The notes beneath the pieces were generated by a model that was not told the DNA's origin, did not search any database, and worked only from the letters and a program-made list of their open reading frames with translations. The position numbers and the translations under genes are program-made. A DNA stretch of 64,000 bases, from contig CAZOQB010000003.1 of assembly GCA_964581995.1 (NCBI GenBank), forward strand, positions 41,989 to 105,988, given 5' to 3'. Each line of letters begins with the position of its first letter. Position 1 is the stretch's first letter. Below, piece by piece: positions 28,950 to 49,075 of this stretch. The DNA is from an uncultured Ignavibacteriaceae bacterium. GTDB lineage: Bacteria > Bacteroidota > Ignavibacteria > UBA10030 > BY39.

Positions 28950-29128
28950 AAAAATCCAATAATTATAATAGAATGCTTAAAATAACATAGAATTGCATAA
29001 CAAGCGGTTAAACTTAACCGCAGTTTTCAGAGTAGCAAGTTAGGCGCAACGCCGTTAGACCACATGAATTAACTATCGCATAGCTACACAAGTTAGCGGA
29101 AATCAAAATAAACAGGAGACAAAATATC

Positions 29129-31889: not shown

Positions 31890-33518
31890 TTACTTAGTCG
31901 ATGGAATCAAGTCCTTCGTTTTCAATTTCGATGGGGAAAAGATTCCTATTACTCCGTTCAATCCCACTGTCATAACTATATTATAGAAAAACGCGATGAA
32001 GGCAATCAGCAATAATGAGCCGGAAAGAGCCGCAAGTATCATATAGCTGTTGAACTCACCCTCGAAATACAAGGTACGTCTCAACATTCCCTGCAATCCT
32101 GCCATTCCCATGAAAGCGCCCATTCCAATTCCTCCGATCAGGTGCGCCCAGAAATGGAAACTTGCCAATTTATCGCTGTACAACTTTGCGCCGTTCGTGA
32201 GAATCGGTAACAACAGATAGATCGCGGAATATAATGTCATTGTCAGTCCTACTAATATTGCAACATGCACGTGCGGACCGACGATCCATTGCGTGTTATG
32301 GAGAATTCTATTCAAGCCCAAATCTGCCTGCATAATTCCGGCTGGAACTGCCAGAGCAAATCCCAATAATCCGCCGAGCAGGAATTTTAACGGGTGAGTC
32401 ATCTTGAGTGGTCTCGCACTCCAGAGAGTAACGAGCGTTATGAAAAATGCCAGACCTTGTGTAATAAGTTCGAAGGCGGTTACCATTTCACCCGAAACAA
32501 TTTTTAGAATTCCCGGCTGTGCCTGATCGGACATCAGATGATGCGACCATACTGTCCACGAGACAACCATCTCAATAAATAATGCGGCACGGGCAACATT
32601 CTCCATGAAAAGTTTTTTCCCCGTAATCATCGTCGCTAATAAATACCAGGTTCCGGCAACAAATATTAATACTAATCCATCGGCAATGAGGTCGAGTCCC
32701 CACCAAAACCAATTCTTGTATAACAACGCATCAACCGCAGAGTGTTTTAAACTGACTCCAAATAACTCCGCTACCATGTAAACAAGAATCAATACACCTG
32801 TAAAAATGATGATGCCCGCATTGAGGGCTGTGTCAACTGTGCCTCTTGCAATGGCGGCAACCGGTAAAGAAACTAAATGTTCTTTTTTCTTTTTTGAAAA
32901 TAGATTTTTCAATCCGGTTAAACCAAGCGCCGATTTCATCAATGCGCCGCCATTCTGTTTTTCCCATCCTTCAGGCGTATAGGTGATCGTCTTGAAAATA
33001 TTAATGACGAAAAATGTGGTGCCCACCATTACTATGGCAATACCGAAGATGAAGAAGGTTCCACCAACAACGCTGAACTGAGTAAAGTCTGCCGGCAGGG
33101 GCCAGTACAGTGTGTAGAGAGGACTGTAATGCGAAACAAATCCGGAGAACCAGAAAATAAAAGTTCCCACAGCAATTAACCATAATGTCCAATTGCCGAG
33201 TTTGATACTCCATAATGGTTTTTTCATAAGAAACGGAACGAGGAATAAGAACGCTCCGAAAACTATGGAGTAGGTCGAGCCAAAAATTCCGACTAACGGA
33301 TGTGCGGTTAGGATGGCAAAGAACTGTTCGTTTGAAACGAGCGGAAAAGGAGCGACCTCGTACAAACGCATGATCATTCCTTCGACAACAGCCAATCCGT
33401 AATAAAGCAAGCCCACAACGACGAATCGTAATGCAAGCTTCTGCATCGGCGTCAGGGTGTTCGGCTTAAATAAACCCTGCTCACCGTGTGTAAGTGTTTT
33501 TATAAAGCTCATATTCAT
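31890..33518 (-). CDS. Heme-copper oxidase superfamily subunit I-like protein (putative NO reductase or atypical oxidase)
   Basis: 542 aa, 12+ TM helices, His pairs at WSHHLM and GPHVHVAIL consistent with CuB and heme ligands. No CuA-bearing partner. Next to an Rrf2 regulator. Confidence 0.65.
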   Translation of the reverse strand: MNMSFIKTLTHGEQGLFKPNTLTPMQKLALRFVVVGLLYYGLAVVEGMIMRLYEVAPFPLVSNEQFFAILTAHPLVGIFGSTYSIVFGAFLFLVPFLMKKPLWSIKLGNWTLWLIAVGTFIFWFSGFVSHYSPLYTLYWPLPADFTQFSVVGGTFFIFGIAIVMVGTTFFVINIFKTITYTPEGWEKQNGGALMKSALGLTGLKNLFSKKKKEHLVSLPVAAIARGTVDTALNAGIIIFTGVLILVYMVAELFGVSLKHSAVDALLYKNWFWWGLDLIADGLVLIFVAGTWYLLATMITGKKLFMENVARAALFIEMVVSWTVWSHHLMSDQAQPGILKIVSGEMVTAFELITQGLAFFITLVTLWSARPLKMTHPLKFLLGGLLGFALAVPAGIMQADLGLNRILHNTQWIVGPHVHVAILVGLTMTLYSAIYLLLPILTNGAKLYSDKLASFHFWAHLIGGIGMGAFMGMAGLQGMLRRTLYFEGEFNSYMILAALSGSLLLIAFIAFFYNIVMTVGLNGVIGIFSPSKLKTKDLIPSTK

Positions 33519-35159: not shown

Positions 35160-36263
35160 ATGAGTCGTATAGAAGTAAATATTAACCCAAGCGTGTTACA
35201 ATGGGCAAGAGAAGAAGCCGGTTACGATCCTTCTGAAATTGCCGCAAAAGTAGAAGTCCCTACGGAAAAATACAATACGTGGGAGCAGAAGGGTGAAAAA
35301 GTGCCTCTTGGGAAATTAAAAAATATTGCCAATTATTATAAAAGGCAATTAGCTGTGTTTTTCCTCCCTGAAGTCCCAAAGAAAATCGTCAAGCCGAAAG
35401 ATTTTCGGAATGTCATAACTGCAAAGAGTAAACTCTCCAAAAAAGTTCTTTTAGTAATGCGCGATGTTACATATTTTCGTCAAACCGCACTTGAAATAAA
35501 AGGAGAAGGATACTGGAAAGATCGCTACAGTTGGATAGCTGAAGTTGACGCCAACAATAAAAAATCCGATGTGATTGCAGGATGGCTTCGTGAGAAATTA
35601 AATATCAGCGTTGAAGAGCAGCTCCGCTGGAAAACATCCAATGAGGCGTATCGTACGTGGAGAAGTGCGGTAGAAAACCAATTGGGAATTTTGATTTTCC
35701 AATTTCCGATGCCACTAAAAGAAGTGCAGGGTTTTTGTTTTACCGATGCGTATCCTTACTCAATCATTGTTAATTCCAATCATTCTTATACTGGTCGTAT
35801 CTTTACAATCTTTCACGAATTGGCTCATATCATAAACCATAATTCCGGCATTTGTTTGTGGGATGATGTTATGGAAAACCAAAATGAAGAATGGGAATGC
35901 AATTCGATTGCAGGAAATTTTCTTGTTCCAAAGAATATACTTCAATCCACAGACGATCTTAAAGAAATTCAGACATACGCCAACAAGTTTAAAATTAGTC
36001 CGGAAGCATATCTGCGTAGATTAAAAGAAGAAAAGGCAATCAGTTCCGTAAAATTCTTTACACTGCTGGATCAAATAAAAGCATCGTATCCCGCAATTCC
36101 ACCTAAGAAAATAATAATTAAGCCTGAAGTGAAAAGCAGGGCGAGCAGAGGAGAGACATTTTACACTCTTGTATTAGATGCTCTGAATCAAAATAGAATA
36201 TCTTATACACAAGCATCCGGAATGCTCGATCTGAATATCAGCCGGGTAATGCGTGAAGCATAG
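35160..36263 (+). CDS. HTH (XRE-like) + ImmA/IrrE-family zinc metallopeptidase
   Basis: N-terminal HTH-like region. HEXXH motif (FHELAHIINH). 367 aa. Confidence 0.75.
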   Translation: MSRIEVNINPSVLQWAREEAGYDPSEIAAKVEVPTEKYNTWEQKGEKVPLGKLKNIANYYKRQLAVFFLPEVPKKIVKPKDFRNVITAKSKLSKKVLLVMRDVTYFRQTALEIKGEGYWKDRYSWIAEVDANNKKSDVIAGWLREKLNISVEEQLRWKTSNEAYRTWRSAVENQLGILIFQFPMPLKEVQGFCFTDAYPYSIIVNSNHSYTGRIFTIFHELAHIINHNSGICLWDDVMENQNEEWECNSIAGNFLVPKNILQSTDDLKEIQTYANKFKISPEAYLRRLKEEKAISSVKFFTLLDQIKASYPAIPPKKIIIKPEVKSRASRGETFYTLVLDALNQNRISYTQASGMLDLNISRVMREA

Positions 36264-36777
36264 CTCGCAAAATATCTATTGCCTTGATACGAGCGCTTTA
36301 GTAACTATGCACCGATACTATCCTATACGAATCCTGCCTGATTTATGGAACAATCTTGAAGAATTATTTAAGAAACGCCGGGTACGTTCCCACGAATTTG
36401 TGTACGATGAAATAGTTCCGTCAACCGGAACAAAAGATGATTTAGCAAAACTTGTTTCGAAGCATAAAGTCTGTTTCCAAGCAATCACAAAAAAACAAGC
36501 GCAAGTTGTACCTGAAATTCTTTCTCTCTTTCCACATCTAATTGATCCGAGAAGCAAGAAAGATCAAGCTGATCCCTGGATTATTGCGATGGTTGTTGAA
36601 TTAATGGAAGAGACAAGTCTATTCGGGAAGGAATCTGAATTTGTTGTTGTCAGCACCGAGAGTGAATCGAGTCCAAATAAAATTCCCGCTGTTTGCAAGC
36701 ATTACAACGTAAGGCATATGAATCTTTTTGAATTTTATGAAGATAATGGATGGAGTTTTTCATTATCAATAAAATGA
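36253..36777 (+). CDS. DUF4411-family (PIN-like) protein, partner of the ImmA/IrrE gene
   Basis: 174 aa. N-terminal YCLDTSALV (PIN-like Asp). Overlaps the upstream gene by 11 nt. Confidence 0.6.
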   Translation: MKHSSQNIYCLDTSALVTMHRYYPIRILPDLWNNLEELFKKRRVRSHEFVYDEIVPSTGTKDDLAKLVSKHKVCFQAITKKQAQVVPEILSLFPHLIDPRSKKDQADPWIIAMVVELMEETSLFGKESEFVVVSTESESSPNKIPAVCKHYNVRHMNLFEFYEDNGWSFSLSIK

Positions 36778-36918: not shown

Positions 36919-37641
36919 ATGGCAGTTAACTCATCCATAGAATGGACCGAATCTACGTGGAACCCGGTTACCGGTTGCAACAAGATAAGTCCGGGATGCA
37001 AGCATTGTTATGCAGAACGGATGGCGCATCGCTTGCAGCGAATGGGACAGGCGAACTATGCTAACGGGTTCAAGCTGACGATGCATGAACACGTTGTAGA
37101 ACTTCCGCTCCATTGGAAGAAGCCGCAAACGATCTTTGTGAATTCGATGAGCGATTTGTTCCACGAAAATGTTCCGCTTGAATTCATCCGGAAAGTTTTT
37201 GATGTGATGCGACGCGCTCACTGGCATCGTTTTCAAATCCTAACGAAACGCTCGGAGCGACTGCGAGAACTAAGTTCACTGCTTACGTGGACGCCAAATA
37301 TCTGGATGGGTGTCAGCGTAGAGAATCAAGAGTACACGCACCGCATAGACGATCTAAGAGCGACAGGTGCACAGGTGAAGTTTCTTTCGCTTGAGCCGCT
37401 GATGGGTCCTCTCCGCAAACTGAACCTTAAAAAGATCGATTGGGTGATTGTTGGCGGCGAATCGGGTCCGCACGCGCGACCGATGGATGAAACGTGGGTG
37501 CTCGATATACGTGACCAATGTGATAGTGCTAATGTCCCGTTCTTCTTTAAGCAATGGGGTGGTACGAACAAGAAGAAAGCCGGCAGATTGCTCGAAGGTA
37601 AGACGTGGGATGAGATGCCGAGATTGAGGAAGGCGGGATAA
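36919..37641 (+). CDS. Phage protein Gp37/Gp68 family (DUF5131)
   Basis: N-terminal [30 protein letters not shown] is highly characteristic of this family. It contains a Cx6Cx2C motif. Confidence 0.8.
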
Positions 37642-37691: not shown

Positions 37692-38816
37692 ATGCATATA
37701 CGAAATAATGTAATCACACTCCTCTTGGTTCTGTTTATCGCCGGATGCAGTAAGTATGACAAAGAAACTATTAAAGTTGGAAGAATACTTCCACTAACTG
37801 GTCCCGCAGCATCTTATGGACAAAGCGAACAGAAAGGTACGGCACTTGCCTTAGATGAAATAAACACCAAGGGTGGAATTGATAATAAAAAACTTGAAAT
37901 CATTTTTGAGGATGATAAGTGCGATGTTAAAGAAGGTGTGAATGCGATGAAGAAGCTTGTAGAGGTTGATAAGGTACCCGCAGTTCTTGGTGCGACTTGT
38001 AGTGGTGTAACTCTTGCTATATCACCGATTGCAAATGAAAAGCAAGTACTTTTACTTTCCCCTCTCTCTTCGCTTGCCGAAATAACCAACGCAGGTCCTT
38101 TTGTTTTCAGGGTGATGCCTTCCGATGCATTCCAAAGCAGAATATTAGCTGAGTGGGTTTATTCAGAGGGGTACACAAAAATTGCTATGCTTTCGATAAA
38201 CAATGCTTGGGGAAAGGGGGTCTCAGATGAATTTCAGAAATATTACAGTCAACTTGGAGGTGTTATTACAATAACTGAAATGTGCAAAGAGGGAGACAGA
38301 GATTTTCGTATCCAATTGGGCAAAATTAAAGAATCAAAACCGACTGCAATCTTTTGTCCGTCGATGCCCAAGGAGGGTGGGCTTATTTTAAAACAATTAA
38401 AAGAACTCGGAATAAAAGTGCCCATCTACGGTGCAGATGCATGGAGTGTAAAAGAACTACTAGATGAAGCAGGAAATGCAGCAGAAGGTGTGATGTACAC
38501 TTACCCAGCTCAGTTTACTGGTGCAGAGTATCAAGAATTCGCTACTTCATTCAAGAAAAAATACAGTCAAGATCCAGATGTCAATGCCGCAGGTGCATAT
38601 GACGCCCTTAAAATTTTATCCGTGTGTATTAAAAACGTTCTGGACCAAAAACTTCCTTTAACGGGCGGCAACCTAAAGATCGAAATGTCCAAGATAAAGG
38701 ATTTCAAGGGTGCAACAGGGACAACAACATTTGATGAGAATGGTGACTCAATCGCAAAGACTTTCGAAAAGATGATAATTCGAAATGGAAGTAGAGTTAA
38801 GTATGAAAAACAATAG
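37692..38816 (+). CDS. ABC transporter substrate-binding lipoprotein, LivK-like (Peripla_BP_6 family)
   Basis: Lipobox (LFIAGCS). Type-I periplasmic binding fold with branched-chain amino-acid binding-protein-like motifs. Confidence 0.8.
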   Translation: MHIRNNVITLLLVLFIAGCSKYDKETIKVGRILPLTGPAASYGQSEQKGTALALDEINTKGGIDNKKLEIIFEDDKCDVKEGVNAMKKLVEVDKVPAVLGATCSGVTLAISPIANEKQVLLLSPLSSLAEITNAGPFVFRVMPSDAFQSRILAEWVYSEGYTKIAMLSINNAWGKGVSDEFQKYYSQLGGVITITEMCKEGDRDFRIQLGKIKESKPTAIFCPSMPKEGGLILKQLKELGIKVPIYGADAWSVKELLDEAGNAAEGVMYTYPAQFTGAEYQEFATSFKKKYSQDPDVNAAGAYDALKILSVCIKNVLDQKLPLTGGNLKIEMSKIKDFKGATGTTTFDENGDSIAKTFEKMIIRNGSRVKYEKQ

Positions 38817-38819
38817 GAA

Positions 38820-39917
38820 TTGGGATTACCAAATAGAATGTTGACTCCGCCTCCCTTAATACGAGGCTCCTTTTTTCGGAGTGATGAGATTGAACGCGTA
38901 CGAGTAAACCATACATTACTTTCGGTTTCGCTTCTTCTTTCCAATGCATGCAATCTCCGCTGTATGTACTGCTATCGTGATGCGGGTGCACAAGACACAC
39001 AATTATTTATATTGAAAGAATGGAAGGAAGTATTAACTCAAGTTAAAGCATTAGGAGCAAGGAATGTTTGGATACCAGGATCGGGAGAACCAATGCTGGA
39101 TCCTGTTTTTTATTATGCTGGAAATTTCCCTTTGATTGAGCTTGCCAATTCTCTTGGATTATCGGTTACTTTCTTTACGAATGGAACCCTTCTTACGAAG
39201 CAACTCGTAAGGCTAATAAAGCAATATGATGTTTCCGTTATCACAAAGCTTAATAGTTTTAATCCTGCAGTGCAAGATTATCTCGCCGGGAAGTCGAACG
39301 TATTTGAGAAAGTGTGGCGTGGTCTAACTTTACTAATTGAGGCCGGGTTTGCGGACAACCATTCATCGAGACTTGGCATCGATACTGTAATTGTTGCTCA
39401 AAACTATGATGAAATCCCAGAGATGTTCAAATTTTGTCGAGATAGGAATATCATTCCTTATATTACTGCTAATCTCCATGGTGGTCGTGCTTGTATGAAT
39501 AACCAGTTGGATGTTTCAAAGAATAAGCTGAGCGTACTATTCGAACAACTATTACGTATTGACCAAGAAGAATATGGTTTTACTTGGTTCCCTTCTCCTC
39601 CAATTGTAGCCTCACAGTGTAAAAAGCTTTTCTACGATATCGTGGTAGATTCCACAGGCGAGGTCTCTCTGTGCCCAGGGATTCAACTACCGATTGGTAA
39701 TATCCGTGATAATAAATTAAAGGACTTGATGCAGGCATCGGATTTATTCCAAAAGATTCGTAATCTGCCAAATAAACTCGAAGGCAAATGCCGATCCTGT
39801 CTTTCAACGGAATGTGGATATGGATGTCGGCTGGAAGCTTGGGCGCATGGTAATCTCTTTGGAGATGATCCGATGTGCTGGCATGAAATTAATACCACAA
39901 CAGTTGCCGTACAATAG
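38820..39917 (+). CDS. Radical SAM enzyme with a C-terminal SPASM domain
   Basis: CNLRCMYC (CX3CX2C). C-terminal CX2CX5CX3C (CRSCLSTECGYGC) preceded by CPG. Confidence 0.8.
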   Translation: MGLPNRMLTPPPLIRGSFFRSDEIERVRVNHTLLSVSLLLSNACNLRCMYCYRDAGAQDTQLFILKEWKEVLTQVKALGARNVWIPGSGEPMLDPVFYYAGNFPLIELANSLGLSVTFFTNGTLLTKQLVRLIKQYDVSVITKLNSFNPAVQDYLAGKSNVFEKVWRGLTLLIEAGFADNHSSRLGIDTVIVAQNYDEIPEMFKFCRDRNIIPYITANLHGGRACMNNQLDVSKNKLSVLFEQLLRIDQEEYGFTWFPSPPIVASQCKKLFYDIVVDSTGEVSLCPGIQLPIGNIRDNKLKDLMQASDLFQKIRNLPNKLEGKCRSCLSTECGYGCRLEAWAHGNLFGDDPMCWHEINTTTVAVQ

Positions 39918-39925
39918 TAGAAACC

Positions 39926-41296
39926 ATGAAAATTCAACTTGTAAAAGCACCTACTCAAAATACAGGCATGCCTGAGCATGACTGGTATACACCTTTAAAT
40001 CTAATTTGGCTTGCGAATTATCTCTGCCAATATGATTATGAAGTTGAAATACTCGATGGTCAGATTCTTACGATTGAAGAAATCCTAAGTAGAATTTCCG
40101 CTGATCTTGTAGGCGTAAGTTTTGATATTTTATCGATTGACAAATTTGATCAAATAGTTTATCAAGCAAAGAGCAGGGGATGCTTTACTTTGGCTGGTGG
40201 TCATCTTGCAACCGCACTCGGAGAACGACTCTTAATTGACAACCCAAATCTTGATGCTGTGGCTTGCTACGATGGAGAAGAAGCACTTCTTGGAGTTGTT
40301 CGTACAGTCGAGAAAAAGAAAAAACTATCAAAAGAGATCCCAAACCTTATTTTTCGGCAAAATGGGACTATTGTTAAAACTATCGTCCGAGATGTGAACT
40401 TATCAGATATACCATTACCGAAGAGGGATGTGGGAGGTATTCAACTTGATGATTATATAAAAAATTTTCAAGAGACAAAAAAAAGATTAGGTTTCGATTT
40501 CAATTATAATAGACCAACAAACACATACTCACACAAAGGTTGCCTGTTCCGCACGAATGGTAACGGTTGTAGTTTCTGTTCCAGAGTAGATCAGAAATTT
40601 AGATTAAAACCTGCTAAAAGGGTATACGAAGAGTACAAATATTTAGAGAGGACATTTGACATAGACTACATATCCGACTTTAGCGATAGCTGGATTTATA
40701 CTCCTTTCGTGAGGGATTTGGTAGAACAATATGAACGGAAAGGGAAGCTGAGTGCATCGATTCGCGTATACGGTGACGTAAGAATGGTGACCGCAGACAA
40801 TGCGAGAATGATGCGACAAATCGGGGTTAATACAGTTCTCCTAGGCATTGAGTCCGGGAATGAAGATGTTCTCAAGAAGAATGGAAAACCAACAACAAGA
40901 AAACAAATTCTCGCAGCGGTTGACATCTTAGCTGCTAACGATATGAAGATTGCAGATGCTTATGTCCTGGGTTTAATCGGTGAGACACGTGAAAGTGTCA
41001 ATGATACAATTTCATTAGCAAAAGAAATTAGAGAGCGATGTAAAACAGAAATTTCGTATTGGAATCTAATGACGCCTCTTCCCGGGAGCAGGATTTGGAA
41101 CATTTTAGTACACGAAAAATATGATCTGTATCCAGATGGAGTATTTCATATTGATACTGAATACCTAGAACGTGTAAGCATTAAAAAATTCACACAACTT
41201 GGTATCCATGGATATGAATATTTAGTAGACAGACGAGAAGAGATGCTGTCTTTATCAAGAATTGCGAGCTCTGAGTTTGTTACAGCCAATAGATAG
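39926..41296 (+). CDS. B12-binding-domain radical SAM protein (class B-like) with a non-canonical Cys motif
   Basis: N-terminal Rossmann-like B12-binding region. Cys motif CLFRTNGNGCSFC (CX8CX2C) in place of CX3CX2C. 456 aa. Confidence 0.65.
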   Translation: MKIQLVKAPTQNTGMPEHDWYTPLNLIWLANYLCQYDYEVEILDGQILTIEEILSRISADLVGVSFDILSIDKFDQIVYQAKSRGCFTLAGGHLATALGERLLIDNPNLDAVACYDGEEALLGVVRTVEKKKKLSKEIPNLIFRQNGTIVKTIVRDVNLSDIPLPKRDVGGIQLDDYIKNFQETKKRLGFDFNYNRPTNTYSHKGCLFRTNGNGCSFCSRVDQKFRLKPAKRVYEEYKYLERTFDIDYISDFSDSWIYTPFVRDLVEQYERKGKLSASIRVYGDVRMVTADNARMMRQIGVNTVLLGIESGNEDVLKKNGKPTTRKQILAAVDILAANDMKIADAYVLGLIGETRESVNDTISLAKEIRERCKTEISYWNLMTPLPGSRIWNILVHEKYDLYPDGVFHIDTEYLERVSIKKFTQLGIHGYEYLVDRREEMLSLSRIASSEFVTANR

Positions 41297-41318
41297 TCAA
41301 TCATAAGGAATATTTAAT

Positions 41319-42464
41319 ATGGGCCTACTTAAATTTATAGTTTCTATAATTGTTCTTGCTGTTATTGCATACTATACTTATCAAAGCACTTTTAATAGGA
41401 TAGATATCGAGACACTTATCATCGCGGAGAAAAGTGGGGGTATAGCTGCGGTCATTCCAGATGGGAAGATAATAAAAGAGGAATCGGCGGATTCACTTTT
41501 CGCAATGTTGGGATATGTCAAGTCAGACAGCTTTGTTGTTCAAGCCGGAAAAGGTACTGGCGATTCGATTGTTGGTACTATAGTTATACTCTTTGGGAGT
41601 ATTGTCGTTTCCTGGAGTATTTTTTCGATAATAGATTACTTGTTCAGTATAGCTCCTTTGCGTCTTCAATGGAGGAGCAAGTTTTTTCGATGGACACATC
41701 GATGGCTGGGAAAATATGGATTAAGTCGTACAGACAGCACAGACAGTGAGTTACGAGAAAACTATTATGAACTTCTTCGGCTACTTTCATCTGGGTTCGC
41801 TAGTGAATATGAAAATGTCAATATCCGCTTAAGCTATAATGGGACAGTATCAGATCTTCAAGAGAGATGCGAAGCAAGTTTAAACGTTGATAAGTTAACA
41901 CTACCCGTAGGTAAAGGGAAATTGGTTGAATTATTGGAATATTGGGAGAAACTTGTTGTCGCAAATAAGGCAATCGTATCCCGTGTTTTTGTTTCGCCAC
42001 CGTGGATTTACTTGTATAACTCAGTAAAGGATAAGAATTCACTCTCTTGGTACTCTTCTGTAAATAAAAACATAAAAACCTGTTGGACGCACACAGGGAA
42101 AGAAAATGTGGAGAGGGAAATAAAGAATCTCAAACCAGATCTAGATTTTGCACTTTTTGAAGGAGATCGCAATGTAGGAGGCATGAAAGAACGGGGTAGG
42201 ATTTGTGTGGGGTATATTAAGGGAAGTCTTGTTTATACCTTCCAGACCAATGATGAATGTTTACTAGACAAAAGGCCTACTTATCTCAACACTTTGTGGG
42301 CTACTGGACAAGACCACAACGCGACGATTGCGGAAATTAATAGTCATTCAAAGCTCTCATGGCGGATTCGTTCTAAAATCATGAGTTACTGTTCAAATTT
42401 TAGTAAAAATATTTTTTCCTTCAAGAAACAATTTCCAATTTCATCAACTACAGTTCCCAAATAA
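41319..42464 (+). CDS. Membrane-anchored hypothetical protein (two N-terminal TM helices plus a ~250-aa soluble domain)
   Basis: Hydrophobic segments at residues ~5-22 and ~85-112. No recognisable family. Confidence 0.5.
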   Translation: MGLLKFIVSIIVLAVIAYYTYQSTFNRIDIETLIIAEKSGGIAAVIPDGKIIKEESADSLFAMLGYVKSDSFVVQAGKGTGDSIVGTIVILFGSIVVSWSIFSIIDYLFSIAPLRLQWRSKFFRWTHRWLGKYGLSRTDSTDSELRENYYELLRLLSSGFASEYENVNIRLSYNGTVSDLQERCEASLNVDKLTLPVGKGKLVELLEYWEKLVVANKAIVSRVFVSPPWIYLYNSVKDKNSLSWYSSVNKNIKTCWTHTGKENVEREIKNLKPDLDFALFEGDRNVGGMKERGRICVGYIKGSLVYTFQTNDECLLDKRPTYLNTLWATGQDHNATIAEINSHSKLSWRIRSKIMSYCSNFSKNIFSFKKQFPISSTTVPK

Positions 42465-42499
42465 TGCATAGGAAAGAATTGTGAATAGTTGTTTTTCAA

Positions 42500-43963
42500 T
42501 TGATATTACAGTATATGAAACCTAAAAAATACTCCATTCTCTCAACAATCAGCGATCCGCAGCGATACGATTTGATGTTAGAATCATGTTATGTCTTATT
42601 ACGATGTGATGAATGGGATTTTATTGAAACTGATGAAAATGGTATACCTTCATCTTCAACTTCATGGATCCATAGTATACAATCTGCATTGATGATGTTC
42701 GGACTTGATGTTACATCGTATCCACAAGGAAGTGTTTCTGCTAATAGAAATTACTATGAAGCATTACGAAATTATTTTGACGGCAAATTCCCTGATAACG
42801 GCGATACAAACCTATTAAGAGAGAGATTAAGAAATTTTCTTCGTCTCAGACGAGATGATTCAGGTACAAGTAATACTGATCTTTATGGGTCATATTTCAG
42901 CACTGATAAAACACACAGTTCACGGGATGTAACTAATTTTAGAAAAATCGAAACAAGCTTGAGACATAGTGCAGCTGCATTATGGATTTTAGTCGAAGAA
43001 TCTCTTGGTAACTTCCGAAAGGATATCTCAGATTCTCTTGATTCTTTTTTTCTACATATCAAGGAGTATTTATCAGCTTCAGATATTTGGAAAAGAGACA
43101 AATTCAAACAACTGACGATCTCCAACACATATAATTTGTGCAAATCTATCTTAAAATATTCAGAAGATAATAAATTTAGAAAAAATGCCTCTTCTGTAAT
43201 TCTAAAATGTAAAAAAGCTATTTGGTCTGAGGACTGTTTAAGACAAGGAGATGATGGTGAATATAGTTGGATATATCCCCAAATTAGTAAGAGTAAATTA
43301 GCAATTTATGAATACTACCTCAATTCTTATTGTCTTGCGCAGATGCCTGAATTGTTAAATGATAAAAGAGCACAGTCTATTGTACGTGGTATGCTAAAAA
43401 ATAGAATTAATTCACTTGTAGGTTTTGGCATTCCTCTCCATCCGTTGATAATATACAATTCTCAGGATAATATTAAACCTGATTTCGGTGCTACTGCCTC
43501 AGTACTTTATTTTCTGTGGTACTCAATTGAGAATGAAGTTGGTGGCCGTAAATGGATTGAATATTGTAAAACAAATTTTGATTGGGTCTTACAGTTTTGT
43601 TTAAAAGCATATGAAAAAAAAGAATATTACATTCTTCCAATATTAGAAAACAGTTCAAAAATATTACTTATGCCAAGGATGAAATTTGATCCTATACGTG
43701 AAGAAGAAATCAATAAGTATATCGAAGAACTAAAAAAGAATGCAATATATCCTGAGATGAAAACACATGAAGGAAAACTTCATAAATCAATGAAAAACAT
43801 ACAATCACCAACTGGTTTAGAATGTGTTAAGGAAATAATCGGAACATGGAATCTCACTGAACATTGGGGTTCACAAAAACGCTGGAAATTTAATTTTAAA
43901 ATTAATTCTGGGAAACTAGGTGAATTTGTTGGTGGTATTTTAAAAGCATATAGTACACCATGA
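42500..43963 (+). CDS. Large hypothetical protein (487 aa), helical, Cys/Trp-rich
   Basis: No recognisable motifs. Shares AT-rich composition with the radical SAM genes. Confidence 0.5.
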   Translation: MILQYMKPKKYSILSTISDPQRYDLMLESCYVLLRCDEWDFIETDENGIPSSSTSWIHSIQSALMMFGLDVTSYPQGSVSANRNYYEALRNYFDGKFPDNGDTNLLRERLRNFLRLRRDDSGTSNTDLYGSYFSTDKTHSSRDVTNFRKIETSLRHSAAALWILVEESLGNFRKDISDSLDSFFLHIKEYLSASDIWKRDKFKQLTISNTYNLCKSILKYSEDNKFRKNASSVILKCKKAIWSEDCLRQGDDGEYSWIYPQISKSKLAIYEYYLNSYCLAQMPELLNDKRAQSIVRGMLKNRINSLVGFGIPLHPLIIYNSQDNIKPDFGATASVLYFLWYSIENEVGGRKWIEYCKTNFDWVLQFCLKAYEKKEYYILPILENSSKILLMPRMKFDPIREEEINKYIEELKKNAIYPEMKTHEGKLHKSMKNIQSPTGLECVKEIIGTWNLTEHWGSQKRWKFNFKINSGKLGEFVGGILKAYSTP

Positions 43964-43964
43964 T

Positions 43965-44240
43965 ATGATTAATCAGTTGCTGATAAATGGTTTAATTTCT
44001 GGAGCGATTTATTCTCTCGTGGCTCTTGGCTTTGCCCTCATTTACCAAACAACCCGTGGCGAAGCCACTCCTTTGGAGCTTCTTCTCCCGCTTTACAGCG
44101 GGACAGGCACTTCCCAAAGGGACAAGTCGCTCACGGGGCTGTTTATACATTTGGCGCTTACACTTCGACGGATTTTACCCCGACGAAAGTAGGGGCTCAG
44201 CGCATGATTTGCTTATCTGTTTTACACACAACTAGAATCT
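43965..44240 (+). pseudogene. Degraded duplicate of the 5' end of livH
   Basis: MINQLLINGLISGAIYSLVALGFALIYQTTRG.. versus LivH MIEQLILNGIIAGSIYSLVAIGFALIYQTTRFF... The nucleotide match resumes at gctcacggggctgtttatacatttggcgcttac and cttatctgttttacacaca. Two GC-rich insertions break the frame. Confidence 0.7.
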
Positions 44241-44284
44241 CCTTTTTTATAGTATGATTATCATGGATAAGTTGTTTGCATTTC

Positions 44285-44322
44285 ATATACAAAAGTATAT
44301 ATTTGTATACAAAAGTATATAA
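44285..44322. promoter_or_regulatory. Tandem direct repeat (tatacaaaagtatata x2), candidate operator upstream of the wHTH-MNT gene
   Basis: Two 15-16-nt units separated by ~4 nt, about 40 nt upstream of the ATG at 44363. Each unit is internally palindromic (TATAC..GTATA). Confidence 0.35.
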
Positions 44323-44362
44323 ACAAGTCAAAAGTCAAAATTAAAAATTAAAAAAATATGAA

Positions 44363-44974
44363 ATGATAATTCACAGGGTATTTGATGAGGTGTTTCGGTC
44401 GTGGTCGCATGTAGCGGTATTGCGGGCTTTACTCGATACGTCGACCGGCTCTACCGGTAATGAAGTGGCGCGTGTATCGGGGATGCAACCGCGATCAGCA
44501 TTGAAGGCGCTGACTTCATTGGAAGCGCTGGGGATTGTTCGCCGCCAGCGGGGTGGAAGAGACCACATTTTTACTTTAAATCGAGAGCACTTCATTGTTC
44601 GTGATGCGATCTTATCACTATACAACTCGGAACGACAATTCCCTGAGGTTCTTGTCAATGAGCTTAAAGCAATTTTGAAAAGCCCTGTTGTAAGTGCAGT
44701 AATGTTTGGAAGCGCCGCTAGAAGAGAAGAGACTCCCCAATCCGATCTCGATATTTGCTGCGTTGTTAAGAGTGAAAAACAAAAGGATGTCGTGCGAGAC
44801 ATATTGAACGATCAAGCCGGGATATTATTTCGGAAATATGGTGTTAAAATTTCTCCTTTACTTTTTACGGTTGATGAACTGCGGAAGAAATCAAAAAATC
44901 AAATCATCAAAAGTATTATAGAAGACGGCAGAGTGATCACCGGGAAAAATCCGAAGGTACTATTAAATGGCTAA
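44363..44974 (+). CDS. Winged-helix + minimal nucleotidyltransferase (MNT) domain protein
   Basis: N-terminal MarR-like wHTH. FGSAARREETPQSDLDICCV nucleotidyltransferase motif. Local GC is markedly higher than the neighbouring radical SAM genes. Confidence 0.75.
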   Translation: MIIHRVFDEVFRSWSHVAVLRALLDTSTGSTGNEVARVSGMQPRSALKALTSLEALGIVRRQRGGRDHIFTLNREHFIVRDAILSLYNSERQFPEVLVNELKAILKSPVVSAVMFGSAARREETPQSDLDICCVVKSEKQKDVVRDILNDQAGILFRKYGVKISPLLFTVDELRKKSKNQIIKSIIEDGRVITGKNPKVLLNG

Positions 44975-45377
44975 ACGACGGGGAAGGAAATCGGTTGATA
45001 GATCACGATACCGGGAGTATTTAAATGTTGCGGAACATTTTTATCAAGCCGGAAAGGATTCTTTTGAATTAGAATACCATACCGCTGCAGGCGTTTTGGT
45101 TGTACACTCGGCAATTGCTTATGCAGACGCACTCTGTATAAAACTATCAGGACAAAGGAGTGCAGGTGAAAATCATGAAGATGTTATCGCCATATTAGAA
45201 AACGTTGTAGCGGATAGTGATGATAAAAAGAAAGCAATACAGCAGCTAAGGCGAATCATAGAAGAAAAAACGCTGATTTCGTATTCGGGAGAATTGTATA
45301 CTGCAAGCGGTGTTGGTGAGTTAATGAAAAGGTTAGAGAGGTTTCGTGAATGGGCAGTGGGAATCTTAAACCGGTGA
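44967..45377 (+). CDS. HEPN-domain protein, partner of the MNT gene
   Basis: 136 aa, helical. Overlaps the MNT gene by 8 nt. Classic MNT-HEPN arrangement. Confidence 0.6.
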   Translation: MAKRRGRKSVDRSRYREYLNVAEHFYQAGKDSFELEYHTAAGVLVVHSAIAYADALCIKLSGQRSAGENHEDVIAILENVVADSDDKKKAIQQLRRIIEEKTLISYSGELYTASGVGELMKRLERFREWAVGILNR

Positions 45378-45381
45378 AGCC

Positions 45382-46260
45382 ATGATCGAACAACTTATTC
45401 TCAATGGAATAATTGCTGGCAGTATTTACTCACTCGTTGCCATCGGCTTCGCTCTCATCTACCAAACCACCCGCTTCTTTCACTTCGCTCACGGCGCTGT
45501 TTATACATTCGGCGCTTACTTCGCTTATCTGTTTTACACACAGCTTGGGTTAGATAGATTTGTAGCGTTTCCTCTCGCTTGCATCTGCGCAGCACTTATC
45601 GGCGTAATCTGCGAAATCATTATTTATAAACCGATGCGAGCGAGGAAAGCAACCGACCTTACATTACTCATAGCATCGCTTGGTCTCTACATCGTTTTAC
45701 AAAATATCATCTCCATGCTCTGGGGAGACGATACTAAAACAATGCGAACAGGTGAAGTGGTTGAGGGACATGAATTTCTTGGCGCACGAATTACAGATAT
45801 CCAAATCGCAATCATCGTAACGTCTATCGTTTTGATTGCGCTGATTTCGCTGATGTTATCGAGGATGAAGTTTGGTAAGGCACTGCGTGCGCTGGCGAAT
45901 GATCCTGAGCTTGCACGGCTGAGCGGTATCAACTCTGATCGGTATATCATGTATGCGTTTGCTATCGGCTCGTTCTTAGCTGCCGTTGCTGCAATTATGA
46001 TCTCGTTTGATACAGACATGACTCCGACTATGGGCTTCAATGCGTTGGTTATGGGAGTGATTGCTGTGATTGTCGGCGGAATTAACAGTTTGCCGGGTGC
46101 GGCGCTTGGTGGTTTGTTTATCGGTCTTGCACAGAATTTAGGTGTGTGGCAGTTGCCCTCAAAGTGGCAGGATACGATAGCGTTTGTGATACTGATTTTG
46201 TTTTTACTTTTTAGACCGTATGGAATACTCGGGAAGAAACCGACGAAGGAACATGTATGA
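45382..46260 (+). CDS. livH: Branched-chain amino-acid ABC transporter permease (LivH-like)
   Basis: 292 aa, eight or more TM helices, typical LivH N-terminus. Confidence 0.8.
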   Translation: MIEQLILNGIIAGSIYSLVAIGFALIYQTTRFFHFAHGAVYTFGAYFAYLFYTQLGLDRFVAFPLACICAALIGVICEIIIYKPMRARKATDLTLLIASLGLYIVLQNIISMLWGDDTKTMRTGEVVEGHEFLGARITDIQIAIIVTSIVLIALISLMLSRMKFGKALRALANDPELARLSGINSDRYIMYAFAIGSFLAAVAAIMISFDTDMTPTMGFNALVMGVIAVIVGGINSLPGAALGGLFIGLAQNLGVWQLPSKWQDTIAFVILILFLLFRPYGILGKKPTKEHV

Positions 46261-46323
46261 TTTCACAGATTGCACAGATTGGACGCAGATGGTGATTATG
46301 CAGATTGCACAGATGATACACAG

Positions 46324-46746
46324 ATGAGCGAGCGAGAAAAATATCCGTTGAAGGAGTTGACTGAGAAGATTATCGGCGCAGCATATGAAGTGCATAACAC
46401 ACTCGGCGGCGGGTTTGTAGAGAAGGTGTATGAGAATGCGTTAATAGAAGAGTTGCGTGAACATGGTTTTATTATTGAACAGCAGAAACCGGTGAGCGTT
46501 TTATACAAAGGGAAATCCGCAGGTGAGTTCATTGCAGATATGATTGTGGAAAAGAAGGTGCTTGTTGAAGTGAAGTCAGTAAAAATGTTAACAAAAGATT
46601 TCGACTCAAAGTTGATTCATTACCTCAAAGCTACAGGCATTGAAGTTGGCTTATTAATCAATTTCGGTGAGAGTGTACAAGTTCATCGTAAAATCTATAC
46701 TCCAAAACAAAAACAATCTGTGAATAAATCTGCGCAATCTGAGTAA
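46324..46746 (+). CDS. GxxExxY family protein (PD-(D/E)xK-like)
   Basis: GGGFVEKVYENAL motif. About 140 aa from the MSEREK start. Inserted between livH and livM. Confidence 0.75.
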   Translation: MSEREKYPLKELTEKIIGAAYEVHNTLGGGFVEKVYENALIEELREHGFIIEQQKPVSVLYKGKSAGEFIADMIVEKKVLVEVKSVKMLTKDFDSKLIHYLKATGIEVGLLINFGESVQVHRKIYTPKQKQSVNKSAQSE

Positions 46747-46749
46747 TCA

Positions 46750-47625
46750 ATGGAATATATACTTCACATATTAATCCTCATCGGCATCTACTGTATCGTA
46801 GGAATCTCGCTAAACTTAGTTGCGGGATATACGGGATTAATCTCGCTTGCACATGCCGGATTTTATGGAATCGGTGCGTACACGGCGGCTTTACTCTCGT
46901 TGAACTTTGGCGTGAACTTCCTTGTGGCAATCCCGATTGCCGTTCTTGTCTCTGCTGTGTTTGGCTTTCTTATTGGGTTTCCATCGCTACGCATCCGCGA
47001 CGATATGTTTGTTATTACGACATTTGGCTTTCAGGTAATCCTTTTCCAGATTATGAACAACTGGATGGACTTGACACACGGTCCGCTTGGGCTTCCCGGT
47101 ATTCCACAACCGACAATCTTTGGATATCAATTCAGTTCGCATATAGATTTTTTAATTTTATCAGTTGTTTTTGTTTTATTGGTTTACTGGATTGTCAACA
47201 GACTTGTAAAATCTCCGTTCGGTAATGTGCTTCGAGGAATACGCGAAGACGAAATATTTGCACAATCGCTTGGGAAGAATGTAAGTTTTTATAAAGTCCT
47301 TTCATTTTCAGTCTCCGCCGGTTTGACTGCAATTGCAGGTGCGTTGTATGCATATTACATTACGTTCATTGATCCGACAAGCTTTACAGTACAGGAATCT
47401 GTTTTCATGCTCTCGCTCGTTATCGTTGGTGGTGCTGGAAGATTATCGGGGTCGATTATTGGTGCGGTGCTTTTAGTAAGCATTCCTGAGATTCTCCGTT
47501 TTGTTGGAATGCCAAGCTCAATCGCAGCGAACATGAGACAGATTCTTTATGGTGGTTTGCTGGTAGCGTTTATGATGTTTCGTCCGAAAGGAATATTAGG
47601 TGAATTCAGTTTTAGACGTGATTAA
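46750..47625 (+). CDS. livM: Branched-chain amino-acid ABC transporter permease (LivM-like)
   Basis: 291 aa, multi-TM, follows livH. Confidence 0.8.
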   Translation: MEYILHILILIGIYCIVGISLNLVAGYTGLISLAHAGFYGIGAYTAALLSLNFGVNFLVAIPIAVLVSAVFGFLIGFPSLRIRDDMFVITTFGFQVILFQIMNNWMDLTHGPLGLPGIPQPTIFGYQFSSHIDFLILSVVFVLLVYWIVNRLVKSPFGNVLRGIREDEIFAQSLGKNVSFYKVLSFSVSAGLTAIAGALYAYYITFIDPTSFTVQESVFMLSLVIVGGAGRLSGSIIGAVLLVSIPEILRFVGMPSSIAANMRQILYGGLLVAFMMFRPKGILGEFSFRRD

Positions 47626-48374
47626 TGCTTGAGATAAAAAACTTAAATAAGTCGTTTGATGGATTGAAGGCGGTGAACGATTTTTCTTTATCGTTACAGG
47701 AAAGAAAAATCACGAGCTTGATTGGTCCGAATGGTGCTGGAAAGACGACGGTGTTTAACATTGTCACGGGATTTCTCCATCCGAATAGTGGTATGGTTAT
47801 GTTCGAGGGGGAAGAAGTAACAAATTTCCCTTCGTTCAAAATCGCCCGGAGAGGTATTGCACGAACTTTTCAAAACTTACGTCTCTTCAAGAAGATGACT
47901 GTTCTGGAAAATGTTCTGTTAAGTCGACAGAATCAACAAGGTGAAAAGTTTTTAAATGCACTTATTGCACATTCTGATTCATCATCAGAGCATAAACGTC
48001 ATCTTGAAAAAACTGAAGCTTTGATAGAATTCATCGGTTTGACAGAACATAAAGATGAGCTTGCTGATAATCTGTCTTATGGTCAACAGAAGTTACTAAG
48101 CATAGCATGTTGTTTAGCGATGGAACCGAAATTACTGATGCTTGATGAACCGGTCGCGGGAGTTCAACCTGCAATGATTGAGAAGATTATTACAATCTTA
48201 AAAGAACTTGTCGAGAAGGAAAAGAAAACCATTCTTTTAATCGAACATAATATCGATGTCGTGTTGGATATTTCCGATACCATAGTAGTTATGGACGAAG
48301 GGAAGAAGATCGCTGAAGACAAACCATCTGTAATACGAAATAATCCGGCGATCCTGGAGGCGTATCTCTCTTGA
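47625..48374 (+). CDS. livG: ABC ATP-binding protein (LivG-like)
   Basis: Walker A GPNGAGKTT. LivG-type insertion. Signature LSYGQQKLL. Confidence 0.85.
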   Translation: MLEIKNLNKSFDGLKAVNDFSLSLQERKITSLIGPNGAGKTTVFNIVTGFLHPNSGMVMFEGEEVTNFPSFKIARRGIARTFQNLRLFKKMTVLENVLLSRQNQQGEKFLNALIAHSDSSSEHKRHLEKTEALIEFIGLTEHKDELADNLSYGQQKLLSIACCLAMEPKLLMLDEPVAGVQPAMIEKIITILKELVEKEKKTILLIEHNIDVVLDISDTIVVMDEGKKIAEDKPSVIRNNPAILEAYLS

Positions 48375-49075
48375 TATACTTAAAAGCAGATATTCCCGAA
48401 GCCGGTTACGGCAAGAAAGTGGTTTTGAAGAACATTGCTCTTAATATTGAGCAGGGGAAGATAGTTGCACTCATTGGTCCCAATGGCGCTGGGAAATCGA
48501 CTCTTCTCAAAGTAATTATGGGTATACTGAAAATACAACAAGGAACCATTTCAGTTGATGGAAAAGATATCACCAATCATTCACCCGAACAAAATGTAAG
48601 GGATAGTATCTCATTTATTCCCCAAGGTAACAGAGTATTCGATGAGCTATCTGTTTATGAGAATCTTGAAGTCGGCGGATATTTGCTCGGCAAGCATGAA
48701 ATCCCGTCGAATATTCAATCAATCCTTGAAATATTTCCCGATATAAAAGATCGGTTGAAACAAAATGCCGGTAAACTCAGCGGAGGAGAAAAGCAACAGC
48801 TTGCTCTGGCGAGAGCACTCATGCTCCAACCCAAAATTCTTCTGATGGACGAACCTTCACTTGGACTCTCGCCAAAATTGGTTGAGAAAGCATTCTCAAC
48901 TATTCAGGATATCAATCAAAAATTTGGTACAACAGTATTAATCGTTGAACAAAAAGTCAGAGAGGTACTTAAGATTTCACACTCTGTCTATGCACTTAGG
49001 TTGGGAGAGATTGTTTTCAGAGGAACACCAGTTGAGCTCAACAGTGAAGAATTGAAAAAGATTTTTTTGGTCTAA
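48371..49075 (+). CDS. livF: ABC ATP-binding protein (LivF-like)
   Basis: Walker A GPNGAGKST, signature LSGGEKQQLALARAL, Walker B LLMDEPSLGL. Confidence 0.85.
   Translation: MIYLKADIPEAGYGKKVVLKNIALNIEQGKIVALIGPNGAGKSTLLKVIMGILKIQQGTISVDGKDITNHSPEQNVRDSISFIPQGNRVFDELSVYENLEVGGYLLGKHEIPSNIQSILEIFPDIKDRLKQNAGKLSGGEKQQLALARALMLQPKILLMDEPSLGLSPKLVEKAFSTIQDINQKFGTTVLIVEQKVREVLKISHSVYALRLGEIVFRGTPVELNSEELKKIFLV

Follow-up and report, generated by a model that had tools for sequence, protein, structure and literature searches.

The subject of this analysis is a group of four genes, g1 to g4, at positions 38820-43963 of a 64,000-nucleotide stretch of DNA (hereafter the window) from an uncultured Ignavibacteriaceae bacterium (contig CAZOQB010000003.1 of assembly GCA_964581995.1). 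We read the region 37692-49075 as one operon, a Liv/HAAT-type importer in which the substrate-binding protein (SBP) and g1-g4 would constitute an interchangeable specificity cassette for the transporter-coupled tailoring of an amino-acid-like small molecule, and we assign to this reading a probability of roughly 0.4. Small-molecule tailoring was among the roles proposed in an earlier description made from the letters of the stretch (the original prediction), and it remains the best explanation. The original prediction had also taken the four genes for an orphan cluster that was inserted as cargo into the liv operon. Neither part of that view was upheld: the same gene order was found in other genomes, the association with the importer is conserved, the SBP varies together with the enzymes, no flanking repeats were found, and the livH fragment next to g4 belongs to a separate toxin-antitoxin insertion.

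Layout, recurrence and exchange of the cassette

The Liv/HAAT importer set is complete in 37692-49075, with a Peripla_BP_6 SBP, two BPD_transp_2 permeases and two ATP-binding cassette (ABC) ATPases, and the operon is interrupted by g1-g4, by an MNT/HEPN pair and by a PDDEXK_3 gene. The four genes are co-directional and tightly packed: g1 starts 3 nt after the SBP stop at 38816, gaps of 8, 22 and 35 nt separate g1/g2, g2/g3 and g3/g4, and the livH-like fragment begins 1 nt past the g4 stop, all in agreement with the coordinates first proposed. The public gene call on an identical contig (L001) has the same genes, but it begins g4 at ATG 42515 (482 aa). This is probably the true start, because it fits the N-termini of the homologues better than TTG 42500 does.

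The neighbourhoods of g4 and g2 relatives were compared by BLAST and Pfam in about a dozen independent contexts, a small sample, and the arrangements found are given in Table 1. When co-location of the four genes was checked, they were found together at L010/L011 in the order of the window, and without g4 at L024. The L010 proteins are 58% (SBP), 56% (g1), 58% (g2) and 48% (g4) identical to those of the window and are accompanied by a transmembrane (TM) protein of 355 aa; at L024 the identities are 64% (SBP), 56% (g1) and 59% (g2). Relatives of g4 were located inside Liv-type operons at seven further loci (L002, L003/4, L007/8/16, L012, L013, L017-19 and L020), even where the gene order differs, as at L012, where the ATPase genes lie upstream (livG-livF-SBP-...-g4-livH-livM). 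A scan of a genome collection for g4 returned one locus only, in a metagenome-assembled genome of SAR324. At L025 an NMT1-type SBP, a BPD_transp_1 permease and an ATPase are followed by a 40% identical g2 homologue, a radical S-adenosylmethionine (SAM) partner and a TM/coiled-coil protein. Irrespective of gene order, then, nearly all loci have an SBP-dependent importer, and three SBP families are represented among them. Methyltransferase-type enzymes occur in six of the seven g4 cassette types, as B12-binding radical SAM proteins in types A and B and as SAM methyltransferases in types C, E, F and the SAR324 locus.

Table 1. Gene orders of the cassette types in the window and at other loci (rSAM, radical SAM)
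Type	Loci	Gene order
A	window, L010/L011	SBP - rSAM/SPASM - B12-rSAM - TM protein - g4 - livH livM livG livF
A without g4	L024	SBP - g1 - g2 - g3 - livHMGF
B	L002, L013, L003/4, L012	SBP - 2-TM protein - B12-rSAM - g4 - livH...
C	L007/8/16	SBP - 58-aa ORF - rSAM/SPASM - 928-aa methyltransferase protein - TM protein - g4 - livHMGF
D	L017-19	SBP - 669-aa RelA/SpoT-domain protein - g4 (frameshifted) - PIN toxin-antitoxin - livHMGF
E	L020	livG - toxin-antitoxin - livF - SBP - rSAM/SPASM - 321 aa - TM-methyltransferase - livH - g4 - livM
F	L022/23	g4 - PF04392 SBP - BPD_transp_2 permease - ATPase - 661-aa TM protein - Cupin_8 - 65 aa - TPMT-type methyltransferase

In two independent cases the comparison between types separates two parts of the operon. 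Between L012 (type B) and L020 (type E) the translocon proteins are 91% (LivM), 80% (LivF), 66% (LivG) and 58% (LivH) identical, whereas g4 shares 34% and the SBP 31%, and the enzymes are unrelated. Likewise, among L010 (type A), L003 (type B) and L007 (type C) identity reaches 69-73% for LivM and 62-70% for LivH, against 36-39% for the SBP and 41-44% for g4. The translocon of the window shares 45-57% (LivH), 49-60% (LivM), 40-56% (LivG) and 38-58% (LivF) with that of the other loci; its SBP is 58-64% identical to the other type-A SBPs and 33-43% identical to those of the other types. The enzymes between SBP and g4 vary by locus and include B12-binding radical SAM, radical SAM/SPASM, SAM methyltransferase and RelA/SpoT-like proteins, and SBP, enzymes and g4 track one another within a cassette type. 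Since the SBP changes with the enzyme set while the permease and ATPase genes stay conserved, the exchangeable unit is SBP-to-g4. To judge from these identities, cassette alleles have been replaced through recombination within the flanks that are conserved, a pattern unlike that of an insertion of four genes.

Base composition places the SBP gene on the side of the cassette. Its G+C content (GC) of 0.399 is close to that of g1 (0.410), g2 and g3 (both 0.381), with 0.323 for g4, 0.455 for livH and a window mean of 0.399 (sd 0.044, 1-kb windows). At third codon positions (GC3) the values are 0.33 for the SBP gene, 0.31-0.35 for g1-g3, 0.23 for g4 and 0.48 for livH; low GC3 is thus common to SBP-to-g4 (0.23-0.35) against 0.36-0.48 in livHMGF of the window. 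The SBP gene resembles g1-g3 and differs from livH, and g4 alone stands out from the window mean. The block had been described as more AT-rich than its flanks; this holds against livH, mainly through g4, but not against the SBP gene, which has the composition of g1-g3. Apart from short matches at chance level, 38820-43963 is bounded by neither direct nor inverted repeats, and no integrase, transposase or other recombinase gene is present at the four-gene block. The window holds no tRNA and no Rfam family at the gathering score, and a scan for promoters and terminators gave counts at the level of shuffled sequence and was uninformative.

The livH fragment after g4 consists of 31 codons with 77% protein identity to the start of the resident livH (65 of 93 nt identical). 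It does begin 1 nt after g4, as first noted, but degenerate copies of the livH 5' end run beyond these 31 codons to about 44233: two repeats, D1 (44127-44161) and D2 (44197-44233), are 94% and 84% identical to 45485-45545. These livH 5' duplicates bracket the MNT/HEPN pair (43965-45545). At L003 a livH 5' fragment (11517-11696) directly follows g4 and is in turn followed by a BrnT toxin-antitoxin pair and an intact livH (11517-12800), and in L002, L010, L012 and L013 g4 abuts or nearly abuts intact livH. By sequence comparison, then, the fragment is the scar of a later MNT/HEPN insertion and shows that livH originally came directly after g4. The MNT/HEPN pair and PDDEXK_3 are intruders and not part of the system.

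Table 2. Features of the importer operon in the window
Feature	Position	Strand	Basis and remarks
SBP gene	37692-38816	+	Pfam Peripla_BP_6, LivJ/LivK-type lipoprotein; first gene of the exchangeable cassette, not a flank
g1, radical SAM/SPASM, 365 aa	38820-39917	+	Pfam Radical_SAM and SPASM
g2, B12-binding radical SAM, 456 aa	39926-41296	+	Pfam B12-binding and Radical_SAM; CX8CX2C
g3, membrane protein with two hydrophobic segments, 381 aa	41319-42464	+	hydropathy; no family
g4, predicted (alpha/alpha)6 toroid, 487 aa from TTG (482 aa from ATG 42515)	42500-43963	+	AlphaFold2 model
Degraded livH 5' end	43965-44233	+	similarity to resident livH start
MNT-type nucleotidyltransferase and HEPN pair	44363-45377	+	Pfam NTP_transf_2/Polbeta, HEPN
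livH-type permease, intact	45382-46260	+	Pfam BPD_transp_2, 162 bits
PDDEXK_3 gene, between livH and livM	46270-46746	+	Pfam PDDEXK_3, 129.6 bits
livM permease	46750-47625	+	BPD_transp_2; gene call of identical public contig L001
livG ATPase	47625-48374	+	ABC_tran; gene call of identical public contig L001
livF ATPase	48371-49075	+	ABC_tran; gene call of identical public contig L001

The binding protein and the products of g1 to g4

The SBP matched Pfam Peripla_BP_6 with 190.9 bits and its N-terminus ends in the lipobox IAGC. Its closest solved relatives are the amino-acid binders 4gnr (E 5e-46) and 3td9 (E 2e-40), and also LivJ/LivK. The binding pocket was compared by alignment, at about 25% identity, to the E. 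coli LivJ sequence as we presume it to be, with the binding roles that we take to belong to Y18, C78, S79, A100-T102, Y150, Y202 and E226; the residues do fall at those numbers. S79 is kept in 10 of 10 proteins, position 102 is Ser or Thr and position 226 Asp or Glu in eight of nine cassette SBPs each, and the type-D SBP lacks both T102 and E226. In the window SBP S79 is kept, T102 is replaced by Ser, E226 by Asp, Y150 by Trp and Y202 by Met. Pocket positions vary by cassette: Y18 becomes Trp in type B, Y150 becomes Trp, Gly or Ser, and Y202 becomes Met in type A. This alignment suggests a ligand like an alpha-amino acid, whose side chain would differ from cassette to cassette. The operon resembles the E. 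coli Liv system (LivJ/K-LivHMGF) in its Peripla_BP_6 SBP, two BPD_transp_2 permeases and two ATPases and in the kept positions S79, T102 and E226. It differs in the four non-transport genes between SBP and permeases, in Y150W and Y202M, in an SBP only about 25% identical to LivJ, and in the replacement of the SBP along with the enzymes between related genomes. Labels of "branched-chain amino-acid transporter" on such operons are probably wrong on the substrate.

The g1 product matched PF04055 (Radical_SAM) with 64.4 bits (cut-off 29.5) and PF13186 (SPASM) with 35 bits (cut-off 21.5). Its SAM-cluster motif CX3CX2C is formed by C44, C48 and C51, and the SPASM domain has the full set of seven cysteines, at 267, 285 (GX4C), 324, 327, 332, 336 and 353. 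Both motifs had been recognized originally, but the distal SPASM block, CRSCLSTECGYGC, is spaced CX2CX4CX3C and not CX2CX5CX3C as had been stated; with respect to the SPASM consensus (CX9-15GX4C ... CX2CX5CX3C ... C), g1 differs by this X4 for X5 and by a first spacer of X17. Orthologues are found at L010 and L024, as given above, and with 44% identity in a Yonathbacteria genome (L026). The closest match in the PDB is SkfB (E 7.5e-10). Among NCBIfam models NirJ2 scores highest, with 101.2 bits where membership requires 500, and all 25 families of characterised SPASM equivalogs listed are far below their curated cut-offs. The radical SAM domain begins at residue 40, which leaves no N-terminal extension of the size of a RiPP (ribosomally synthesized and post-translationally modified peptide) recognition element (RRE). 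With PADLOC (PADLOC-DB v2) only pVip was matched, at 57.5 bits and over the radical SAM core, the NCBIfam viperin model scored 45.3 bits against a cut-off of 180, and PHROGs returned only generic radical SAM families. In summary of its kinship, g1 shares the CX3CX2C core and the seven-Cys SPASM domain with the SPASM/twitch enzymes NirJ/AhbD, SkfB, MftC, PqqE and anSME, but scores below every equivalog cut-off, has the CX2CX4CX3C spacing and lacks an RRE, a partner peptide and a chaperone.

For g2 the B12-binding region and the unusual cluster motif first noted were both borne out: PF02310 (B12-binding) scored 42.5 bits (cut-off 32.1), PF04055 47 bits (cut-off 29.5), and the motif CLFRTNGNGCSFC at residue 206 has the form CX8CX2C. 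A 2026 review gives the canonical CX3CX2C as the motif of the B12-radical SAM class (PMC12931638). Thus g2 has the N-terminal B12-binding Rossmann domain and the radical SAM core of the class B cobalamin-dependent enzymes (QCMT 9CCB, TokK, PhpK, HpnJ/HpnR, BchE), many of which are weakly similar to it by profile, but it carries CX8CX2C in place of CX3CX2C. The family comprises 156 proteins at E<=1e-20 (about 150 members), and the spacing is kept in 96 of 111 full-length homologues, so CX8CX2C is probably a functional variant and not decay; the more distant type-B partners carry CX9CX2C. On these alignments g2 belongs to an uncharacterised clade with a conserved non-canonical cluster motif. The best NCBIfam match was TIGR04013, at 62.9 bits against a cut-off of 251, with all scores far below their cut-offs, so that g2, like g1, falls in no characterised family, in keeping with the original prediction; the MCR glutamine C-methyltransferase model reached 53.9 bits. 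The sole PDB match, 9CCB (E 2e-5, about 100 residues), is the glutamine C-methyltransferase QCMT (PMC12931638). No g2 relatives were found in IMG/VR contigs, PHROGs or PADLOC, and the plasmid search gave one match at 23% identity.

The g3 protein has hydrophobic segments at residues 1-19 and 84-102 by hydropathy, and an Arg/Lys-rich stretch read from the sequence follows the second one; we infer that the C-terminal domain of about 270 aa is cytoplasmic. As originally stated, two TM segments are present and neither g3 nor g4 can be placed in a family: g3 had no match in Pfam (even at E<=1), NCBIfam, PADLOC or PHROGs, and a word-indexed search of 5.8 billion proteins returned only g3 itself. Its positional homologues at L010 (355 aa, 22% identity, E 4e-4) and L024 (367 aa, 22%, E 1e-8) have neighbours that are 53-64% identical to those of the window, and g3 evolves very fast. 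Comparison by hhalign of the type-A TM proteins (window, L010) with those of type B (L002, L003, L012, L013) gave a probability of 0.1 and no detectable relationship, and the two groups are therefore positional analogues only. A lenient Pfam scan (E<=1) of ten TM and accessory proteins yielded noise only. A single-sequence AlphaFold2 model of g3 was unusable, with a predicted local distance difference test score (pLDDT) of 36.5.

For g4, an AlphaFold2 model built on an alignment of 17 sequences had a pLDDT of 88.6 and a predicted template modelling score of 0.88, and the fold can be assigned with confidence, as a model, to the (alpha/alpha)6 toroids. Foldseek found no PDB match better than E 2e-3 (template modelling score about 0.4) and none among viral structures. 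The resemblance in fold is to six-hairpin glycosidases (GH88/GH105/GH15/GH8) and to class II terpene cyclases and prenyltransferase-like proteins, to which g4 is only 5-12% identical. Compared with the class II terpene cyclases, g4 has the (alpha/alpha)6 fold but, as read by eye in the alignment, carries LRRDDS in place of DxDD and a lone QxxDGxYxW stretch in place of QW repeats, and it has no SQHop_cyclase or Prenyltrans Pfam match. Weak Foldseek matches to transcobalamin (E 0.04-0.07) raised the idea of a cobalamin carrier, which was rejected because several g4 cassettes have no B12 enzyme.

The g4 family is new and very rare. The word-indexed search of the 5.8 billion proteins found 17 relatives at 39-48% identity, and 35 members were recovered when 1.84 billion representatives were searched in full with a HMMER profile, the three weakest of them short fragments and the rest at E<=1e-40. 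No family was matched in NCBIfam, PADLOC or PHROGs, all 17 members gave noise only against Pfam at E<=5, the g4 profile found nothing below E 0.38 among PDB sequences, and IMG/VR contigs and plasmids held no relatives. The protein has no hydrophobic segments and is taken to be cytoplasmic. Forty positions are invariant in its alignment; Arg, Ser, Asp, Glu and His are frequent among them, and they include R83, R117, D119, R148, R155, H156, D328 and E383. The alignment contains the motifs YPQGSxSANR, LRRDDS, RHSAxALW and PDFGAT, which matched no catalytic signature that we could identify. To judge from these residues, g4 may be an enzyme that acts on an anionic substrate. At its C-terminus a Gly-rich helix (GEFxGG...) is also conserved, though the model is of low confidence there.

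Proposed import and tailoring, and other possible roles

In the reading that we prefer, the lipoprotein SBP would capture an alpha-amino-acid-like ligand, LivHMGF would import it, and g1, g2 and g4 would transform it in the cytoplasm or at the membrane. The step of g2 would probably be a methylation or other radical chemistry at an unactivated carbon, and g3 could serve as a membrane-side partner. As the SBP pocket and the set of enzymes joined to it both differ from cassette to cassette, related strains would handle different ligands. Importer operons with processing enzymes are known in the phn C-P lyase system, in chu/hut with the radical SAM enzyme ChuW, in lsr and in the opine systems occ/noc. 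All have an SBP-dependent importer and cytoplasmic enzymes in one operon; in chu/hut the radical SAM enzyme ChuW/HutW acts on the imported substrate, and the opine systems are strain-variable, with SBP and enzymes changing together. However, the operon in the window has no sequence relationship to any of them (the ChuW/HutW model gave g2 only 16 bits), and here the enzymes lie between SBP and permeases, in the company of a rare toroid protein and a fast-evolving TM protein.

Several observations weigh against this reading. The g1-g2 pair occurs alone at L026 (Yonathbacteria), adjoining TrmB regulators and without a transporter; no convincing small open reading frames (ORFs) lie beside it. At L005/6, L009 and L021, on short or rearranged contigs, g4 has no visible liv genes. 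Since L024 lacks g4 altogether and L017-19 carry it in frameshifted form, the radical SAM pair can do without it. The amino-acid nature of the ligand depends on an alignment to LivJ at about 25% identity, and the functions of g1-g4 are throughout ones that we infer. TM proteins that evolve so fast are unusual in a plain metabolic operon, and methylation is a step met with more in biosynthetic tailoring than in catabolic or salvage pathways. The repeated toxin-antitoxin insertions and the nearby conflict genes would also be compatible with a conflict-related role.

As the main alternative, the cassette could make its ligand: an amino-acid-derived, strain-specific secreted metabolite (a signal, or an opine-type metallophore serving as a "private good") would be retaken by the cognate SBP and LivHMGF, and cassette swapping would create specificity groups comparable to pyoverdine or pherotype loci. 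The co-variation of SBP receptor and tailoring enzymes between close relatives with a conserved translocon argues for this, as does the recurrence of methyltransferase-type tailoring enzymes across cassette types, and the staphylopine operon cnt, with biosynthesis genes beside an SBP importer, is a precedent. Importers within biosynthetic clusters are in addition described as serving product or precursor uptake, chiefly that of recaptured products (PMC7849407). We consider this explanation unlikely, however, given that no exporter is found in any locus examined (the membrane proteins have only 2-4 hydrophobic segments and belong to no transporter family), that no scaffold-forming enzyme such as an NRPS, a ligase or a nicotianamine-synthase-like protein was seen, and that there are no metal-related genes and no regulator or riboswitch was found. 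It is less probable still that g1 and g2 mature a protein or peptide, in a RiPP-like or anSME/QCMT-like manner, the target being g3, g4, the SBP before its export or a peptide encoded in trans. SPASM enzymes commonly act on peptides or proteins and SkfB is the closest solved relative of g1; the sole solved relative of g2, QCMT, is a protein C-methyltransferase, in line with the score of the MCR glutamine C-methyltransferase model; g3, like many precursors, has diverged far more quickly than the genes around it; and small ORFs occur in two other cassette types (58 aa at L007, 65 aa at L022). Yet the gaps of 3-35 nt in the window block leave no room for a precursor gene, and g1 has no RRE-sized extension. 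Neither a precursor gene nor an RRE or PqqD-like domain, a leader peptidase or other protease, or an exporter was found in g1-g4, as the original prediction had remarked of precursor, protease and transporter. Scores against the peptide-maturase families fall far short of the cut-offs and do not exceed the scores against the small-molecule enzymes NirJ2/AhbD, other cassettes swap these enzymes for a RelA/SpoT-like protein or ordinary methyltransferases, and the dependence on an SBP would be left unexplained.

A conflict or anti-phage system, in which an ABC module would be linked to enzymes that vary and to a membrane effector, seems to us very unlikely, although the defence role first suggested has conflict genes near many loci in its favour, which is circumstantial. 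These are ImmA/IrrE with DUF4411 and DUF5131 upstream in the window, an OLD nuclease upstream of the SBP at L003 (overlapping its start) and L010, ABC-three-component (ABC-3C) parts and an SLFN-like protein at L007, a TIR protein at L009, a faint KAP-NTPase match at L021, and GmrSD and HEPN at L025; one cassette has a RelA/SpoT-like enzyme, and interchangeable locus versions and fast-evolving membrane proteins are typical of conflict systems. But toxin-antitoxin genes appear abundant throughout these genomes, so that proximity to conflict genes is weak evidence. For g1-g4, PADLOC gave nothing beyond generic domain similarity (pVip for g1, with the viperin model at 45 against 180, and none for g2-g4), no relatives turned up in viral contigs, phage protein families or viral structures, and a periplasmic amino-acid-type SBP with a complete importer has no obvious role in infection sensing. 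Least probable is that g1-g4 are unrelated cargo, functionally unconnected with the transporter, that landed in a housekeeping liv operon or at a recurrent integration hot spot. The AT-rich g4 would fit this, as would the invasion of these operons by selfish modules in at least four loci and the existence of a g1-g2 pair without a transporter. The recurrence of the block in importer operons of three SBP families with differing gene orders, the co-variation of the SBP with the block and their common base composition, the lack of integrase, transposase and flanking repeats, and the assignment of the livH fragment to the toxin-antitoxin insertion all stand against it, and recurrence and identity comparisons have already largely refuted this view.

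A bolder reading, which we regard as doubtful, is a hitherto unrecognised kind of specificity-cassette system of uncultivated, probably anaerobic bacteria, in which modules (SBP, membrane protein, toroid enzyme and radical or methyl-transfer enzymes) on a conserved translocon make and/or recognise their own non-proteinogenic amino-acid-like molecule. Such a system could pair a private metabolite or signal with a matched receptor, its diversity could be maintained by frequency-dependent selection, and cassettes could be exchanged by recombination in the flanks. If so, the CX8CX2C B12-radical SAM family would perform new chemistry on free amino-acid-like substrates, and cassettes that set ligand-specific groups of uptake or recapture would offer environmental bacteria a new way to keep metabolism or signalling private at the level of the strain. 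With g3 and g4 belonging to no family and the g2 clade uncharacterised, the co-encoded SBP offers a practical handle on the substrate. Except for g3 and g4, the parts are of known kinds; what appears to be undescribed is the architecture and the way it is exchanged as a unit, together with the g4 family and the CX8CX2C clade. In the literature searched, the curated families and the defence models we found no description of radical SAM genes embedded in a Liv-type operon, nor, in the libraries and literature searched, of a binding protein and tailoring enzymes swapped as one unit against a conserved translocon of a Liv-type importer.

Selfish insertions and neighbouring genes

Toxin-antitoxin modules sit at the exact 5' end of livH in the window and at L003, and in both cases the first 90-270 nt of livH are duplicated, in diverged form, so as to bracket the module. 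A replacement 5' end seems to be brought in or displaced by the element, which leaves livH intact; insertion may repeatedly be targeted to the gene in this way. The 16-nt palindromic repeat TATACAAAAGTATATA occurs in two perfect copies, 20 nt apart, upstream of the MNT gene (44286-44321) and is probably the operator of the toxin-antitoxin pair. Four of the liv-type operons examined have been invaded by selfish modules. The other junctions concerned hold the PDDEXK_3 gene of the window (46270-46746), a 23S_rRNA_IVP gene with a ParE pair at L003 (13660-14664, the same livH/livM position), a PIN pair at L018 (7119-7768) and a pair of 84 aa and 176 aa at L020 (1562-2300), whose families were guessed by eye.

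Directly upstream of the SBP gene, an OLD-family nuclease (AAA_15 and TOPRIM) is encoded at L003 (4657-6450) and L010 (3507-5291), the two being 71% identical. The L003 gene overlaps the SBP start by 4 nt, which suggests that a defence-type nuclease is co-transcribed with the importer operon. In the window a DUF5131 (phage Gp37/Gp68) gene at 36919-37641 lies 50 nt upstream of the SBP gene, with a GC of 0.50 and a GC3 of 0.56; against the window mean of 0.40 it is compositionally foreign. It is preceded immediately by a pair encoding an ImmA/IrrE-like peptidase and DUF4411 (35160-36777). The most AT-rich stretch of the window is 27000-29500, where GC falls to about 0.30 over 1.5 kb, below that of g4. 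The same genome that carries the cobalamin/radical SAM cassette has a COX1 gene (haem-copper oxidase subunit I) at 31890-33518 on the minus strand, so that a strictly anaerobic life is improbable, unless the oxidase serves in defence against oxygen. By the TonB-receptor and OEP proteins encoded in the window, the organism is diderm.

Among the other cassettes, the g4 gene of the RelA/SpoT type at L018 (4985-6431) is split by a frameshift near a CCCC run. L017, L018 and L019 are assemblies of different samples and all three show the identical frameshift, so the gene is probably a real pseudogene in that population. A lone g4 copy at L005 (9691-11458), and likewise at L006, is 78% identical to the L007 g4 and lies without SBP or liv genes beside a gene for MC6, which in Pfam is a family found together with the CTD families of ABC-three-component systems; this looks like a rearranged remnant of an L007-type locus. 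The short ORFs of types C and F, at L007 5265-5441 (directly before the radical SAM/SPASM gene) and L022 10955-11152 (before the methyltransferase gene), have no counterpart in the window and could encode precursor peptides or small partner proteins.

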